A DNA stretch of 64,000 nucleotides from Methanobacteriota archaeon. GTDB lineage: Archaea > Thermoplasmatota > E2 > JACPAO01 > JAHWKR01. Below the pieces are notes generated by a model that saw only the letters and a list, made by a program, of their open reading frames with translations, searched no databases and was not told where the DNA came from. Both the position numbers and the translations under genes were made by a program. Of this stretch, positions 10,097 through 16,038 are shown piece after piece (the stretch's first letter is position 1; each line of letters starts with the position of its first letter). The stretch is taken from the NCBI GenBank assembly GCA_019347805.1, contig JAHWKR010000012.1, positions 4,473-68,472 on the forward strand. Direction: 5' to 3'.

Positions 10097-10810
10097 TCAT
10101 TCGAGCGGTATGGGCGGAGGCCCGTCGTGCGGTTCGCCCAACCTGGCCTCGGTGATCTCCCACCAGCCGGCGTCGCGGTGCCAGTGGGGTTCGGCGGACA
10201 CGACCTCGAGGGGGCGTCGGAACCCGGGTCCGTCGGTGACGAGGGTCTCGTATTCGCCGCCTTCGCCGGCGATGTTGAAGCGGAACCGTTCCGCCTGCCG
10301 TTCCAGTGTCGTGAGGGCGCGCCGGGTCAACTTCCGGCCGAGCCAGCCGCGGCCGAGTCCGTCGGTGGCGGTGGCGACGATGTGGATGTGGAAGCGGGCG
10401 GCTATGAGGCTGTGCACGTAGGCGTGCGGGTCCTTGTGCCAGAGCGGGGCGAAGGTCTTGAGACCGAGCCGGTGTCCGATGCGTTCGATGCGGGTGCGCT
10501 GGTATTCGGATGCGATGGCCCCTGAGACGACCGCGTCGGCCTGCGTCTCGTCCCGGGCGCGCCGAAGGAGCGATCCGAGGTCTTCCAGTTCCGTCTCCTG
10601 CTCGCCCTCGGTCTTGCCGGTGAAGAGGGGGACCTCGAGGGCTTCGGCGAGGAGTGCGGTCCAGCGTGTGTTGGGCCGGTGGAACATGTGCGAGTCCTCC
10701 CCGACGACCTCCAACGTGCAGGCGCCCACCACGTCCCAGCCATGCAGGCGCGCGATGTGGAGCGCGGCGACGCTGTCTTTGCCACCCGAAAGGAGGGCGA
10801 GGACCTTCAC
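10097..10810 (-). CDS. dph6: Diphthine--ammonia ligase (PP-loop)
   Basis: LSGGKDS PP-loop, SHMFH, GAIASEYQRTRIE, GEGGEYETLVTDGP; GTG start at 10810. Confidence 0.9.
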   Translation of the reverse strand: MKVLALLSGGKDSVAALHIARLHGWDVVGACTLEVVGEDSHMFHRPNTRWTALLAEALEVPLFTGKTEGEQETELEDLGSLLRRARDETQADAVVSGAIASEYQRTRIERIGHRLGLKTFAPLWHKDPHAYVHSLIAARFHIHIVATATDGLGRGWLGRKLTRRALTTLERQAERFRFNIAGEGGEYETLVTDGPGFRRPLEVVSAEPHWHRDAGWWEITEARLGEPHDGPPPIPLE

Positions 10811-10987
10811 AGGCTGGCCGACCTGGTGGCGATTCTTGAGGGTTCCGGACGTCCGGCATGGTCGGTACAGTCTGGTGGTTTCCGTGGGGAAAGTGCGGAA
10901 GATGATGATATCGTAGCCGGATGTCACGGGAAGTCCTCTTCTTTCCTGTCGTTCTCCCTATGACACGCATTCCCGAACGTGATGGTT

Positions 10988-11035
10988 GCAAGCAAACAAT
11001 CCTTTTATGCAAGAAGACAATCGGCAAGAAACAGG
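10988..11035 (+). promoter_or_regulatory. Three direct repeats flanking a TATA box in the dph6/TrmB divergent region
   Basis: GCAAGCAAACAATC (10988), GCAAGAAGACAATC (11009), GCAAGAAACAGG (11024), with TTTTAT at 11003-11008. Confidence 0.55.
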
Positions 11036-11046
11036 TGGAGCCGGGA

Positions 11047-12402
11047 TTGCACTCGAACACGACACCGGAAGAGCGCGTCTCGACGCTCCAATCGTTCGGA
11101 TTGACGGAGAACCAGGCCAAGGCGTACCTGGCCCTCCTGGAACTCGGCCGTGCGACCGCGAGCGCCCTCAACAAGCTCTCCGGTGTGCCACGGAACAAGG
11201 TCTATTCGGTCGTCGAGGAGTTGAACGAGAAAGGGCTCGTCGAGATCGTCCTTGAGGACCCGATCGTCTTCGAGGCGCGTCCGGTCACACGGTACCTCGA
11301 CCTGCTCGCCTCCGAACTGGAATCGAAACGGAGGGACCTGAAGGCGAGCATGCCACGGCTCGCTGATGAGTTCCAGATCAAGGCCACCCTCTCCGAGGAC
11401 GACCTTCAGGGCGGCTCGTTCCGGATCTACAAGGGCCGGCGTGCCGTGCTCCAACAGCACAGCCGCATGAACCGGGACGCGAAAGGGAGCGTCAAGGTGG
11501 TATGCACCCCGAGCACGCCCGCGCGGATGCTCGCCTCTGACATGCTCGGCGACTACCCGGACCTGGAGGCGGTGCGGTTCGAGATCTTCACACCGCTCAC
11601 AAAGAAGAACATCCCGGCCGTAAAAAGCCTCTTCGAGCGTCTCGGTCGCGCGATCCGGGTCACCACCGGTTCTCCGCGCAACGTCATCATCAAATTGGTC
11701 GACGACAAGCAGGTCTTCTTCACGCATGTCATCCCGGACACGGAGTCCACGACCCAGGGCGACGATGTCGGGGTCTGGACCGACAATCCGGTCTTCCTGC
11801 AGCTTGCGACCGAGCTCATCGAGCGCGCCAAGGAGCGCAGCCAGGAGTTCCACACCGCACGGCTCGCGCTCGAGGCGGACCAGCCGTTCCCGGAGATGCG
11901 GGTCCTCCAGGACCCGACGGAACATCGCGAGCTCTTGATGCTCGGGCTCATGCAGGCGAAGGAGATCATGGCGGTGACGGACGGGTCGATGCTCCTGCGG
12001 GGGATGGCCTCCATGGCCGACCCTTCGTTCCGCGCCAACATGGAGCAGCGTGAGGTCCGCATCCGGCTCGTCACCCGCGTGACACAGGAGATCCTCAAGG
12101 CGGTCACAGACCGGCCGAACATCGAGTTGCGTCACCTCGACTCGGTCCCGGGCAACTTCATCGTCTTCGGCGACCGCGTGATCCGCACACACCGGATGGA
12201 CCCGGGAGCGGAGGACCCGTTCGAGGTCGGCAGCCTGACGTTCTATTCCACGCTCCCCGGCGTCGTCGTCGAGGCCAAGGACCACTTCGAGCGCCTATGG
12301 CAGGCCGCCGTCCCGACCGGCGAGCTCGACCCGGCGGAACTGCCGAAGGCGTCGCGTCCGGACCGCGACAAGGGCACGCCGGAAGAGGAAGCCGTCGCCT
12401 GA
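11047..12402 (+). CDS. TrmB-family regulator with apparently duplicated C-terminal effector domain
   Basis: FGLTENQAKAYLALL...GVPRNKVYSVVEEL HTH; two segments ending in IKLVDDKQVFF/GVWTDNP and FIVFGDRVIR/FYSTLPGVV...HFERLWQAA; TTG start after GGAG. Confidence 0.85.
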   Translation: MHSNTTPEERVSTLQSFGLTENQAKAYLALLELGRATASALNKLSGVPRNKVYSVVEELNEKGLVEIVLEDPIVFEARPVTRYLDLLASELESKRRDLKASMPRLADEFQIKATLSEDDLQGGSFRIYKGRRAVLQQHSRMNRDAKGSVKVVCTPSTPARMLASDMLGDYPDLEAVRFEIFTPLTKKNIPAVKSLFERLGRAIRVTTGSPRNVIIKLVDDKQVFFTHVIPDTESTTQGDDVGVWTDNPVFLQLATELIERAKERSQEFHTARLALEADQPFPEMRVLQDPTEHRELLMLGLMQAKEIMAVTDGSMLLRGMASMADPSFRANMEQREVRIRLVTRVTQEILKAVTDRPNIELRHLDSVPGNFIVFGDRVIRTHRMDPGAEDPFEVGSLTFYSTLPGVVVEAKDHFERLWQAAVPTGELDPAELPKASRPDRDKGTPEEEAVA

Positions 12403-13212
12403 TCAACGTTCGCAGGCGTCGAGAAGGTCTTGGACAGAGCGCCGGACGGTATCGCGCAGCACCGGCCGGTGGGGCCTCGCCGCCGCGGTCTCTTCAAGGT
12501 CCACCACGACCTCCAGGACATGCGGTGCGTCATACACCCCACGTTCTTTCAGGACACCACGGGGGGACCAGTATTGGTTGCCGCCCCAGAAGACGAGCGA
12601 TTCCTGGGTGCCGCCGAAGTTGGCGTAGACGAGGGGCAGTGTGCATTCGATGGCGCGCGCGGCGAAGACCGCTTCGAAGAAGCGCCTGGACGTCCCCGGG
12701 CTCGCCGAGATATTGACCAGCACGTCCGCCCCTTTGAGGGCGAGCGCCTTGTGCAGTTCGGGGAAGAAGACGTCGTAGCAGATGGACACGCCGAGCCGGC
12801 CCCAAGGGGTCTCCATCAGGCCGGAACGGACACCCGGTGTGAAGAAGAGACCGTCGAGGAACGGATCGAACGTGGAGAGTTGGCGTTTGTCGTAATGCTG
12901 GACCGACTCGTCGGCACCGACGAGGACGGCCGAGTTGTAGACCAGCCCCGGCCGGGTGGCGTCCGCGCGGGGCATGCCGAAGATCACCCATTTCCCGGTC
13001 TCTTCCGCCCACTTTTTGACACGTGACACCGATGGACCGTCGAGGCCCTCAGCAAGCCGGTGCACGCGGTCGAGGACGAGGTAACCGGTGAGCGCCATCT
13101 CGGGGAAGACGACGAGGTCGCCCGCCGCCTCACGGACGACCGTCCCCATCTGGTCGAGGTTGGCCTCCTTGTCGCCGAGTCGGGGCCGGATGGACGCGAG
13201 CGTGGTGCGCAC
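12403..13212 (-). CDS. Carbon-nitrogen hydrolase (nitrilase family)
   Basis: E-K-C triad: VFPEMALTGY, YDKRQL, SICYDVFFPE. Confidence 0.9.
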   Translation of the reverse strand: MRTTLASIRPRLGDKEANLDQMGTVVREAAGDLVVFPEMALTGYLVLDRVHRLAEGLDGPSVSRVKKWAEETGKWVIFGMPRADATRPGLVYNSAVLVGADESVQHYDKRQLSTFDPFLDGLFFTPGVRSGLMETPWGRLGVSICYDVFFPELHKALALKGADVLVNISASPGTSRRFFEAVFAARAIECTLPLVYANFGGTQESLVFWGGNQYWSPRGVLKERGVYDAPHVLEVVVDLEETAAARPHRPVLRDTVRRSVQDLLDACER

Positions 13213-13321
13213 GGAGGCCGGGAGCGGACGGCGTGTTAAAAGGGCTGTCCGCGACCGTCAGTCTGTCCCTTGGCGCCATCCCCTCCTTTTATGGACCCGG
13301 ACCCGGTCCCGCGCCCTGCAG

Positions 13322-14158
13322 ATGGGCCTGAACGTCAAGCTCGACACGGAGGCGACCGAACGCACCCTGGTCCGCTTCATCCGCGACTATGTCGAGAGCG
13401 CCGGCGCGCGCGGTGTCGTCCTCGGCCTGTCGGGTGGACTCGACTCGGCGGTCGGCGCGACCCTCGCCGTCCGCGCCCTCGGCGCGGAGCGTGTGCATCC
13501 GTTCTTCCTGCCGGCGGCGACGAGCAGTGAGGCCGACCGCAAAGACGCGAAGCGGATGGCGGAGCACCTCGGGCTCACCCTCACGGAGCACCCCATCGAC
13601 CCCATGACCGATGCCACCCATGCCGCCCTCGGCAAAGAGCCTCCACGCCAGGTGGCGCAGAACATCCTCCCGCGTCTTCGCATGGTCCTGCTTTTCGCCG
13701 AGGCGCAAGACCGCGGCGCGATCGTCATGGGCACCGGCAACAAGTCCGAGCTCCTCACCGGGTATTTCACGAAATACGGCGACGGCGGTGTCGACCTGCA
13801 ACCCCTCGGCGACCTCTACAAGACACAGGTGCAGGAACTGGCGGTCCACCTCGGTGTCCCAAGCAAGATCGTCGACAAAACGCCGAGTGCGGGGTTGTGG
13901 GAAGGCCAGACCGACGAGGACGAGCTCGGCATGACCTACGACACCCTGGACCAGGTGCTCCTCGGCATCGAGGTCGACCTGCCGTTCGAACGCATCGCCG
14001 AAGATGCCGGTGTCCCGCTCGACGAGGTGCATCGCATCGAACGCCTGCGCAGGGCGACACAGCACAAACGCCACATGCCCATCGTTCCCAAACTCGGCAT
14101 CCGCACGGTCGGCACCGATTGGCGCGACCCGGTGATGGGCGACGGTCCGGAGGCATGA
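13322..14158 (+). CDS. nadE: NAD+ synthetase (single-domain)
   Basis: LGLSGGLDSAV, GTGNKSELLTGYFTKYGDG, DLYKTQV, PSAGLWEGQTDEDELG. Confidence 0.95.
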   Translation: MGLNVKLDTEATERTLVRFIRDYVESAGARGVVLGLSGGLDSAVGATLAVRALGAERVHPFFLPAATSSEADRKDAKRMAEHLGLTLTEHPIDPMTDATHAALGKEPPRQVAQNILPRLRMVLLFAEAQDRGAIVMGTGNKSELLTGYFTKYGDGGVDLQPLGDLYKTQVQELAVHLGVPSKIVDKTPSAGLWEGQTDEDELGMTYDTLDQVLLGIEVDLPFERIAEDAGVPLDEVHRIERLRRATQHKRHMPIVPKLGIRTVGTDWRDPVMGDGPEA

Positions 14159-14159
14159 G

Positions 14160-14441
14160 ATGACCGAAACGAACACCGCACCGTCCGGACGTGCCGCACG
14201 TCTGCCCCAGTCCCGCGGCGACGCCGCCAAGGTGCTCGTCCTCCTCGTGCTGCTCGAGGCGGCGCTCGCGCTCTTCGTCTGGCTGAGCGTGCACTGGATG
14301 GACGAGGTGGGTCCGCTCGGCTATTGGATCGTCGTCGCCTTCGCCGTCGCCACCTCGGCCGCCCTCGCGCTTTTCGCGGTCTCGCTCTTCTTCGACGCCC
14401 TGTCTGTCCTCCTCGGCGTCCTGTCGCGGGACAAGGAATGA
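14160..14441 (+). CDS. Small two-TM membrane protein
   Basis: Two hydrophobic stretches; 1 nt after the nadE stop; ATGA overlap with the next gene. Confidence 0.7.
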   Translation: MTETNTAPSGRAARLPQSRGDAAKVLVLLVLLEAALALFVWLSVHWMDEVGPLGYWIVVAFAVATSAALALFAVSLFFDALSVLLGVLSRDKE

Positions 14442-15274
14442 CCGCCGCGGAGCGACACCCATATCCCCCATCGCGCGTTCCCCGGCGCCGGATGGCGCGC
14501 ATCTACATCGCCGGGCCCCTTTTTACGAAGCAGGACCGGGAGGTCCTTGAGCGCATCGACGCCGCGCTCCGCGAAGCGGGGCACAACCCGTTCCTGCCCC
14601 ACCGCGACGGGGACGATGTAGGGGCCGCGCGGGGTCCGGACGGCGCCGAGGACGCGGCGGAGCGGCGCACGCGTATCTTCCTCGCCGACATGAAGGGCTT
14701 GGAACGTGCCGATGCCTTGGTCTGCCTGCTCGACGGGCCGGACACCGACGCCGGCACCGCGTTCGAGATCGGTTGGGCCTACGCCGAGCGTCGACCGGTC
14801 TTCGCCCTGCGCACCGATTTCCGCACGCAAGGCCCCGAGGGTGCGGTGTCGCTCATGCTCCTCGGTGCCGCCGACCGTTTCCTGCCCGCCGACGAGATGG
14901 GTTGGGAGGACATCATGAAGGAGATCGTCGATTGGGCGGCCGGCATCAAACCGTTCGGTCAGCGCATGGTGCGCGACGCGGTGCCCCGCATCCTGAAGGA
15001 GAAGGGCCACGACCTGCGCTTCCGGCGTGTCGAGAAGGACGAACGGCCGCTGGTCTTGAAGAACAAGATCGAGGAGGTGGGGCGGCGGTTGCGCATGGCC
15101 GACCGCACCCGCGAAGAGGAATCGGTGGTGGACCTCCTGGAGGCGACCGAGGCGTTCATCCGCGAGCGGGGTTGGGACAAGAGCACGTTGCAGGCGCTCA
15201 AGTCGGGACGATGGAAGACCCGGGGCGGCTACGAGGAAGGCTGGATCGTCGAGGGCGACGGTGCGGAACCCTGA
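14438..15274 (+). CDS. Nucleoside 2-deoxyribosyltransferase-family domain fused to a MazG-like (COG4997-type) NTP pyrophosphohydrolase domain
   Basis: IYIAGPLF...PFLPHRD...DAGTAFEIGWA (NDT); MVRDAVPRI...KIEE...VDLLEA...RGGYEEG (all-alpha NTP-PPase pattern). Alternative start 14492. Confidence 0.8.
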   Translation: MTAAERHPYPPSRVPRRRMARIYIAGPLFTKQDREVLERIDAALREAGHNPFLPHRDGDDVGAARGPDGAEDAAERRTRIFLADMKGLERADALVCLLDGPDTDAGTAFEIGWAYAERRPVFALRTDFRTQGPEGAVSLMLLGAADRFLPADEMGWEDIMKEIVDWAAGIKPFGQRMVRDAVPRILKEKGHDLRFRRVEKDERPLVLKNKIEEVGRRLRMADRTREEESVVDLLEATEAFIRERGWDKSTLQALKSGRWKTRGGYEEGWIVEGDGAEP

Positions 15275-15324
15275 TCGGGACCGACAGGAAGCCCCGCGGT
15301 CGAACCATGGACCGAAGCGCTTAG

Positions 15325-16038
15325 ATGCAGGAAGAGCGACTCAGGCTTGGGATGCACCAGAGAACGAAAGGGCCCGAGCCGCGCCTCATCGGCTTCGACC
15401 TCGACGATGTCCTGTTGGAGTTCTTCCCGGTCTTCGCGTACCGCCTCCTCGAGGCCCATGGCGTCGATGTCCGGCGAGCCAAGCGGACCGATTGGGAGTA
15501 CGTCCGGTTGCCCGAGATCGTCGCCGCGGGGTTGACCGAGAGCGATGTGCGTCGGGTCGTCCACCAGGCGTGCCATGACCATGGAGCGCACGCCGATGTC
15601 GGACCCATCGACCCGGTCATGGTGCAGACGGTGCGCCGGCTTCGCCGCGATGGCCATCGCGTCGTCCTTGCCACCGCGCGCACCCCGTCCTCGGCGGCCG
15701 TCGTCGCCACCTGGCTCGACCGGCACGGCCTCGTCTTCGACGAACTGCGCTTCGGCCGCGGTTCCAAGCTCGGGCTGGACATCCTGGTGGAGGATTCTGC
15801 GCACCAGGTGTTGCGGGCGGTCGCGACCGGGAGCCAGGTCTTCGTACCGGACCGGCCGTGGAACGACCGGCCCGATGTCCGTGGCCATCCGAACGTCACC
15901 GTCTACGATCGGCCCGATGCGCTCTACCCCTTGATGGCGGCGCGCATCCAGGGTGTGAAGGACCTCTATGGCTTCAGTTCGGCGGACCTGCTGATGGAGG
16001 ACGCGCCGCAGGCGGACACACCGGCCGGTTCGCCGTAG
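15325..16038 (+). CDS. HAD-superfamily 5'(3')-deoxyribonucleotidase-like phosphatase (NT5C type)
   Basis: IGFDLDDVL motif I, LATAR motif II, K..LDILVED motifs III/IV, RPWN. Confidence 0.8.
   Translation: MQEERLRLGMHQRTKGPEPRLIGFDLDDVLLEFFPVFAYRLLEAHGVDVRRAKRTDWEYVRLPEIVAAGLTESDVRRVVHQACHDHGAHADVGPIDPVMVQTVRRLRRDGHRVVLATARTPSSAAVVATWLDRHGLVFDELRFGRGSKLGLDILVEDSAHQVLRAVATGSQVFVPDRPWNDRPDVRGHPNVTVYDRPDALYPLMAARIQGVKDLYGFSSADLLMEDAPQADTPAGSP

Follow-up and report, generated by a model that had tools for sequence, protein, structure and literature searches.

What does a protein do that joins a nucleoside (2'-deoxy)ribosyltransferase (NDT) domain to a domain of the MazG-like pyrophosphatase superfamily, and why is its gene found behind nadE? 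The question is raised by a gene at 14492..15274 (+) of the window, the 64,000-nt stretch of an archaeal contig analysed here (JAHWKR010000012.1, G000:C4 in our genome set; high GC, ~67%). A first-pass annotation had proposed that this fusion and the neighboring HAD phosphatase dismantle damaged or modified nucleoside triphosphates (NTPs) in three steps. In our analysis, this three-enzyme stripping cascade probably does not run as written at the window locus. The reading we prefer, to which we assign a probability of roughly 0.5, combines a predicted active NDT domain, a MazG-like module that would be non-catalytic and, in this genus, a salvage route from nucleoside monophosphate (NMP) to nucleoside to base, fed by the HAD phosphatase.

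The two domains of the fusion protein

The fusion protein is 260 amino acids long when begun at Met19; residue numbers given here refer to a 278-amino-acid frame that starts further upstream. Its N-terminal domain (14498..14941, +) matches the nucleoside (2'-deoxy)ribosyltransferase family PF05014 with an e-value of 7.2e-24 (84.6 bits vs a cut-off of 28.8 bits), and an NCBIfam scan of the fusion protein gave no match. Compared with the PDB, a profile of the window's protein family matched 7o62 (1.4e-18), 7m5h (3e-15), 6evs (7e-11) and, at about 1e-4, DNPH1. An AlphaFold2 (AF2) model of the whole protein (pLDDT 74.6) was matched by Foldseek only over the NDT half, which resembles the flavodoxin-like NDT fold of 7m5h (1.4e-8) and of 6evs, 7o62, CtNDT and DNPH1 (down to 1e-4).

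The key residues of this domain are Tyr23, Pro54, Asp84, Asp104, Glu110 (codon 14765-14767), the motif TDFR at positions 126-129 and S138-L-M. Glu110 is the Glu within GTAFEIG to which cleavage of the N-glycosidic bond had been ascribed in the first-pass annotation, and the surrounding catalytic loop reads D99-G...D104-x-G-T-x-x-E110. Y23, D84 and E110 correspond in the alignment to catalytic residues of 7o62 and 7m5h and do not vary in the window's family, all ten members of which (10/10) carry the full NDT catalytic set. By sequence, the N-domain is a true PF05014 nucleoside (deoxy)ribosyltransferase whose catalytic set is complete, and the NDT identity proposed earlier is borne out by Pfam, by the PDB sequence matches and by Foldseek. 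In the window's family it is also predicted to remain catalytically competent, because it has every catalytic and oligomerisation residue and because it is the better conserved of the two domains (67% within-family identity vs 55% for the C-domain).

Which substrates it may prefer can be read from characterized relatives. In the archaeal enzyme AvNRT, roles have been assigned to Tyr/Phe7, Asp79, the nucleophile Glu85, a TDYR tetramer motif and the Asn of an NLM motif, which binds O5' (PMC7308715). Among NDTs, the Pro is conserved in transferases, and Asp and Asn are the ligands of the 5'-OH (PMC12884076). By the rule of PMC7308715, Tyr instead of Phe at the first position points to a preference for 2'-deoxy substrates. 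Asp104, six residues upstream of Glu110 (-6), is a nucleoside-type residue, and it occupies the position at which DNPH1 has the phosphate-binding Ser98 (PMC10603095). The N-domain had been likened to DNPH1; with Asp at -6 from the Glu and with the transferase Pro, it is of the nucleoside type instead. The NLM Asn is replaced by Ser138 in 10/10 members of the window's family and is an Asn in a second family of fusions (f2), in the fusion protein P0035, in the standalone proteins and in all other active relatives. Ser138 would correspond in position to S128' of DNPH1. The nearest standalone NDT relatives are 140-amino-acid proteins of Methanosarcinaceae and Archaeoglobaceae (44-50% identity), and neither a MazG-like gene nor nadE was found near two standalone NDT homologs (Methanosarcinaceae locus L005 and contig L035).

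The C-terminal domain (14942..15259, +) is an all-alpha NTP-pyrophosphatase-like domain of the COG4997 type (MazG/HisE superfamily), an assignment made through hhalign, PDB profile comparison and AF2. Searched alone, it had no match in Pfam (E<=10), and NCBIfam does not recognize it either. An exhaustive profile search yielded 7,301 representatives at 50% identity with E<=1e-3. The 31 of these with E<=1e-30 make up the fusion clade, and scores then fall sharply to standalone proteins of about 100 amino acids with the signature KLVRDxIP...KLxEExxEL...EExADxLEV...RGGF. We compared the fusion C-domains with 66 of the standalone proteins by hhalign, which gave 99.9% with an e-value of 1.7e-33 over 102 columns. 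The standalone profile in turn matched the PDB, where 13 of 15 matches were all-alpha NTP pyrophosphatases: HISN2 PRA-PH (7bgm, 4.1e-4), HisE (1yxb, 2a7w, 1yvw, 1y6x), Sulfolobus MazG (1vmg), phage MazZ (7ody) and Bacillus MazG (5ie9), aligned across the EExxE...ExxD helices. The profile of the fusion clade itself returned only noise from the PDB; the search became informative with the 66-member standalone profile.

Three relatives (P0047, P0127 and P0162) exceed the Pfam gathering scores for MazG/PRA-PH. The AF2 model of the C-domain (pLDDT 91) is all-helical with four helices, and HisE/MazG entries are enriched among its Foldseek matches, but every one of these has E>1 and a TM score of 0.4-0.5, and none is significant. 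Through transitive homology we therefore assign the domain to the MazG-like/COG4997 proteins at the superfamily level, and to this extent the MazG-like label given in the first-pass annotation holds.

In MazG, Mg2+ is held by an ExxE and an ExxD pair, formed by E119/E122/E138/D141 in the Mycobacterium tuberculosis enzyme, and EcMazG has six acidic residues at the site (E171, E172, E175, E192, E193 and D196) (PMC10014863). The six corresponding columns are acidic in 98-100% of 94 standalone relatives. At these columns the window protein has E213, V214, R217, E228, S229 and D232: EExxE has become E213-V214-x-x-R217 (15074-15088), and EExxD has become E228-S229-x-x-D232 (15119-15133). Of the ten proteins in the window's family, none (0/10) retains the second Glu of EExxE and two (2/10) retain the third; the family has lost three of the four canonical Mg2+ ligands. 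Because V214, R217 and S229 stand in place of Glu, the canonical conversion of NTP to NMP and pyrophosphate is unlikely in the window protein by comparison with MazG, and so is the NTP->NMP step with which the fusion had been credited. None of the 40 fusion proteins departs from the motifs VRDxVP, KxK and RGG[FY], and within the window's family D232 and E235 are likewise invariant. Since these residues do not vary, the C-domain there is still under purifying selection.

The COG4997 family comprises more than 7,000 clusters at 50% identity, and in the literature searched we found no experimental characterization of its proteins, only incidental matches. COG4997-type domains with an intact EExxE also have other fusion partners, a Cof-type HAD phosphatase in P0129 and, in several cases, Nudix hydrolases (P0055, P0060, P0075, P0080 and P0162), which suggests that the family may generally work in series with other nucleotide hydrolases.

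Origin and decay of the fusion

The fusion is rare: it accounts for 31 clusters at 50% identity among 1.84 billion and is nearly confined to one archaeal order. We found it in 30 of 61 related genomes. These belong to three families of one order (f1, which is the window's family, f2 and f3), with one further genome (G040) from another family; the remaining families of the class, as represented among the 61 genomes, lack it. In the literature searched, no description of the architecture was found, again with only incidental matches. The combination of NDT and MazG-like domains thus appears undescribed, although it is built from known families, in line with the first-pass annotation, in which it was not recognized as a described architecture.

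We placed the C-domains on a tree rooted with the standalone proteins. The fusion clade is monophyletic (support 100/93), P0035 of genome G040 branches first, and f1 groups with f2 (support 95/92) above a long stem. The state of the two active sites differs along this tree. P0035 retains both. An intact NDT site combined with a lost ExxE is found in f1, in P0123 and in most f2-type proteins. In f3, every NDT catalytic residue is lost in 27/27 representatives and the MazG acidic set is mostly kept; within-family identity there is 39% for the N-domain and 65% for the C-domain. Both sites are lost in P0026, in P0089 and in the proteins of genomes G006 and G008.

The tree topology indicates that the fusion arose once in this archaeal class, and the distribution of intact sites is best described as reciprocal decay of a presumed ancestral bifunctional enzyme. 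A partitioning of the two activities between gene copies does not describe it, because most genomes have a single fusion match and no compensating paralog.

The f3 fusions carry low-complexity, acidic or Pro-rich C-terminal tails of 26-220 amino acids (for example L015:1207-2337 (-); P0016-P0045). In about 20 of the 27 representatives the tail ends in a peptide of the form [RK]x2-4[FLI][FYRWH][ED][VILA]-COOH, such as SEFYEV, GQFFEI or PNLREI, which looks like a docking motif.

The nadE locus and its neighbors

The nadE gene (13322..14158, +) encodes a single-domain, NH3-type NAD+ synthetase (PF02540, 6.5e-81; NF010587, 2.4e-92, over the cut-off). One nucleotide separates its stop codon (14156-14158) from the ATG at 14160 of an open reading frame (ORF) for a small membrane protein of 93 amino acids with two hydrophobic segments (14160..14441, +; here called 2-TM), for which there was no Pfam or NCBIfam match. 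The fusion gene follows, and 50 nt lie between its stop codon (15274) and the ATG (15325) of the HAD gene (15325..16038, +). All four ORFs, as well as the gaps of 1 nt between nadE and 2-TM and of 50 nt between fusion and HAD, are where the first-pass annotation had placed them.

That annotation had further described nadE, 2-TM and the fusion as tightly coupled through the 1-nt gap and an ATGA overlap. Both exist, the overlap lying at 14438-14441, where an alternative upstream ATG of the fusion at 14438 would give the protein of 278 amino acids. This start is probably unused: 8/8 full-length homologs begin with MAR[FIL]Y, equivalent to Met19 (14492), as does the public gene call of the window protein (P0003, 260 amino acids). 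As homologs start at Met19, the real gap between 2-TM and the fusion is about 50 nt.

The 2-TM ORF has counterparts elsewhere. Across two families (f1 and f2), five genomes have a small membrane ORF behind nadE with matching location and topology, at gaps of 1-13 nt (L002 7483-7959; L034 8209-8613; L020 1888-2166; L021 1081-1332), and tblastn matched the window's ORF to L002 at 9.6e-7. Owing to these equivalents, we consider it a real gene.

In line with the first-pass annotation, the HAD protein was assigned to the NT5C (5'(3')-deoxyribonucleotidase) type by PF06941 (9.2e-7, 29.3 bits vs a cut-off of 24.8 bits); its motif I (DxDxV/T) reads FDLDDV, and no relative in the PDB was found by sequence. 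The HAD gene closes the unit, and the next gene is convergent. Between nadE and the end of the HAD gene, a scan found no AT-rich box, no T-run and nothing resembling a promoter or terminator. AT-rich boxes that look like promoters occur in the cluster only in the intergenic region (13213..13321) between nadE and a divergent gene for a nitrilase-type amidase (CN_hydrolase; 12403..13212, -; PF00795, 6e-34). Direct reading and the same scan showed two TATA-like boxes there, one assigned to nadE (TTTTAT, 13287) and one to the minus-strand gene (GTTAAAAG, 13234). Given gaps of 1, about 50 and 50 nt and the lack of internal promoter-like or terminator-like signals, nadE, 2-TM, the fusion and the HAD gene likely form one transcription unit.

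All of the related genomes (61/61) have nadE. Of the 30 that also carry the fusion, 22 have it at most 4 kb downstream of nadE on the same strand, and this linkage spans three families despite differing intervening and downstream genes. The gene in between is the 2-TM ORF in f1 and f2 and an HxlR regulator in f3, with larger insertions elsewhere; downstream of the fusion follow HAD and S6e in f1 and Dus, with a 4-nt overlap, in f3. The fusion is unlinked to nadE in G040 and in genus g6 (G005). A phyletic co-dependence of the two genes was ruled out by their frequencies (61/61 vs 30/61).

The HAD gene behaves differently. Just two loci have it next to the fusion, the window's and L002 (the two HADs are 52% identical); it is absent from 15 other loci, including that of G001 from the window's own family and all f2 and f3 loci. 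Weak HAD homologs occur unlinked in 8/40 relatives (9/41 searched genomes when the window's own is included). We conclude that HAD is a recent, local addition. The neighborhood thus presents a persistent nadE linkage on the one hand and a HAD linkage restricted to two genomes on the other, which leaves the three-enzyme route without standing as a conserved system.

Other genes around the fusions have housekeeping functions (nadE, Dph6, S6e, aIF2-gamma, Dus and TiaS). The best NCBIfam match of CN_hydrolase is NF010588, the N-terminal part of glutamine-dependent NAD+ synthase, and the protein is likely the glutaminase partner of nadE. A block of Dph6 (diphthine-ammonia ligase, PF01902), CN_hydrolase and nadE, at 10097-14158 in the window, is conserved throughout the order. 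In many relatives CN_hydrolase stands directly between the two NH3-dependent ATP-pyrophosphatase ligases, and in the window a TrmB gene intervenes; this nitrilase-type amidase might supply ammonia to both Dph6 and NadE. The TrmB-family regulator, which has a long C-terminal region, adjoins Dph6 (10921-12402) and is represented by two tandem paralogs in L002 (2725-5669). The f3 unit runs nadE-HxlR-fusion-Dus, with the 4-nt overlap between the fusion and Dus, a tRNA-dihydrouridine synthase, seen at L028:6638-8493 (-), where TiaS and an ABC transporter lie nearby. In G040 (C114:15300-16037), a divergent nadE (36% identity) within a 555-amino-acid open frame is unlinked to the fusion and is possibly of the fused glutamine-dependent type.

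Possible functions and comparison with known systems

In the reading we favor, the ancestor would have been bifunctional, with an archaeal nucleoside (deoxy)ribosyltransferase of the NRT/NDT type and a MazG-like NTP pyrophosphatase of the COG4997 type in one chain. The window protein would act as a nucleoside N-glycosyl transferase or hydrolase in nucleoside/base salvage or pool clean-up, its MazG-like module serving as a non-catalytic (regulatory) domain for nucleotide binding and/or oligomerisation and not for the NTP->NMP step. In this genus, the neighboring NT5C-type HAD would convert (d)NMPs to nucleosides, giving a two-step route from NMP via nucleoside to base. The placement behind nadE would be ancient within the order and most likely stem from joint expression of housekeeping genes for nucleotides and cofactors and not from a common pathway. 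Several points weigh against this reading. The linkage to nadE in 22/30 genomes despite rearranged flanks hints at a functional tie that it does not explain. The doubly degenerate proteins P0026, P0089 and those of G006 and G008 are still conserved, which suggests that the role may be non-catalytic. Finally, it is by analogy with MazG, HisE and dUTPase that the C-domain is called inactive; with E213, E228, D232, E235, VRDxVP and RGG[FY] kept, a one-metal or Arg-assisted non-canonical catalysis is conceivable.

The full cascade, in which the MazG-like domain converts damaged or modified (d)NTPs to (d)NMPs, HAD these to nucleosides, and NDT removes the base in a dedicated dismantling route, would account for the presence of three enzyme types in one unit. 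It also finds support in the repeated fusion of COG4997-type domains to nucleotide hydrolases (NDT, Cof-type HAD, Nudix), in the two active sites of the basal P0035, and in the phage enzyme DutZ, which converts dATP and dGTP to dNMPs and adjoins, or is fused with, the NDT-family dAMP hydrolase DmtZ (PMC12884076). Yet the Mg2+ ligands are replaced in the window protein and in all 10 family members, HAD is linked in two genomes only, the NDT domain is of the nucleoside type, and the NDT site is dead in 27/27 f3 representatives, so that we regard the cascade as unlikely here. It may describe the ancestor instead of the window locus: by analogy, the order MazG, NT5C, NDT may be a reasonable picture for the ancestral bifunctional protein.

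An alternative that we consider possible but rather unlikely takes the linkage to nadE literally. The fusion would then act on pyridine nucleosides or nucleotides, cleaving nicotinamide or nicotinic acid riboside or exchanging nicotinamide and nicotinate, or would bind NAD or its nicotinic acid analog NaAD; it would work with NadE, and HAD would be a 5'-nucleotidase for nicotinamide and nicotinic acid mononucleotide (NMN/NaMN). Yeast HAD nucleotidases (Sdt1/Isn1) do dephosphorylate NMN and NaMN, and NDT-fold enzymes have the same fold as ADP-ribosyl cyclases. The linkage holds across three families though flanks and intervening gene (2-TM vs HxlR) differ, and the small ORF between nadE and the fusion is translationally coupled to nadE. 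However, the linkage is kept equally in f3, where the NDT site is dead, and therefore cannot depend on glycosidase chemistry. The fusions of the basal G040 and of genus g6 are unlinked, nadE occurs in 61/61 genomes and the fusion in just 30/61, and synteny at the level of the order may be historical, Dph6 and CN_hydrolase being equally conserved. An antiviral system based on nucleotide depletion, also raised in the first-pass annotation, is extremely improbable. NDT-like and MazG-like domains do occur in some conflict systems, and phage NDT families in PHROG match the N-domain (phrog_7995, 8.4e-19), but PADLOC gave no match for the fusion, the HAD or the 2-TM protein, the neighbors are housekeeping genes in conserved synteny, the order-wide distribution looks vertical, and neither a sensor nor a toxin partner accompanies the fusion.

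Two further explanations place the conserved function outside catalysis. Both domains could be ligand sensors or scaffolds in a nucleotide-sensing regulator, with catalysis limited to certain lineages. This would fit the high conservation of the C-domain where both sites are degenerate (P0026, P0089, G006 and G008), the motifs invariant in 40/40 fusions and the docking-like peptide at the end of the long f3 tails. We hold it to be very unlikely, as the NDT catalytic set, invariant in 10/10 members of the window's family, argues for retained enzymology, and neither a partner nor a DNA-binding feature was identified. A related idea, which we rate as quite unlikely, sees the fusion as a chimera of enzyme and pseudoenzyme that has been conserved for sensing nucleotides, with catalytic sites as extras of single lineages. 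Its invariant core (VRDxVP, KxK and RGG[FY] together with the NDT oligomer scaffold) may be a ligand-gated regulator of NAD or nucleotide homeostasis, because the fusion stays behind nadE whichever site survives (NDT only, MazG only or neither); it might act via the coupled 2-TM protein or the C-terminal docking peptide of f3.

For annotation, the locus calls for caution: it should not be read as a working three-step cascade, and its MazG-like module is probably no hydrolase. Beyond this, the family provides a compact series of proteins with both sites, either one or neither, in which the decay of a bifunctional enzyme into an enzyme/pseudoenzyme can be followed, and it gives a handle on the uncharacterized COG4997 family. 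Both domains come from families engaged in nucleotide-pool "house-cleaning", whose animal counterparts DCTPP1 and DNPH1 are drug targets.

Compared with known systems, the N-domain shares the PF05014 fold with the archaeal and tetrameric NDT-NRT enzymes (AvNRT of Archaeoglobus veneficus, CtNDT, 7M5H of E. faecalis and 7O62 of D. psychrophila), together with the YxAGPxF strand, the transferase Pro, the DG..D.G..E loop and the TD[FY]R tetramer motif. Unlike these, it is fused to a C-terminal MazG-like domain, and in the window's family only, the NLM Asn is a Ser. The standalone COG4997-type proteins have the same domain over about 100 residues, with VRDxIP, KxK, ExxDxxE and RGGF in common; they keep EExxE...EExxD at 98-100%, whereas the window protein has E-V-x-x-R...E-S-x-x-D.

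In mammals, the MazG-like DCTPP1 and the NDT-fold DNPH1 employ the same two folds for the removal of modified pyrimidine nucleotides, but as separate proteins. DNPH1 has the equivalent Tyr/Asp/Glu triad (PMC10603095) and binds the 5'-phosphate by S98 and S128'; the window protein has Asp at the first of these positions and would have Ser only at the second. The DutZ-DmtZ pair of Z-genome phages likewise brings together a dNTP pyrophosphatase and an NDT-family N-glycosidase/transferase in one protein or operon (PMC12884076). The differences are that DutZ has a trimeric dUTPase-like fold, whereas the pyrophosphatase module of the window protein is MazG-like, and that DmtZ is specific for dNMPs, lacks the Asp/Asn ligands of the 5'-OH and is viral, in contrast to the chromosomal housekeeping gene studied here. 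Judged by analogy, DutZ-DmtZ would be the best functional counterpart of the ancestral, doubly active form, and the fusion of the MazG-like and NDT folds supports the idea that, as in these phages, NTP pyrophosphatases and N-glycosidases/transferases work in series.

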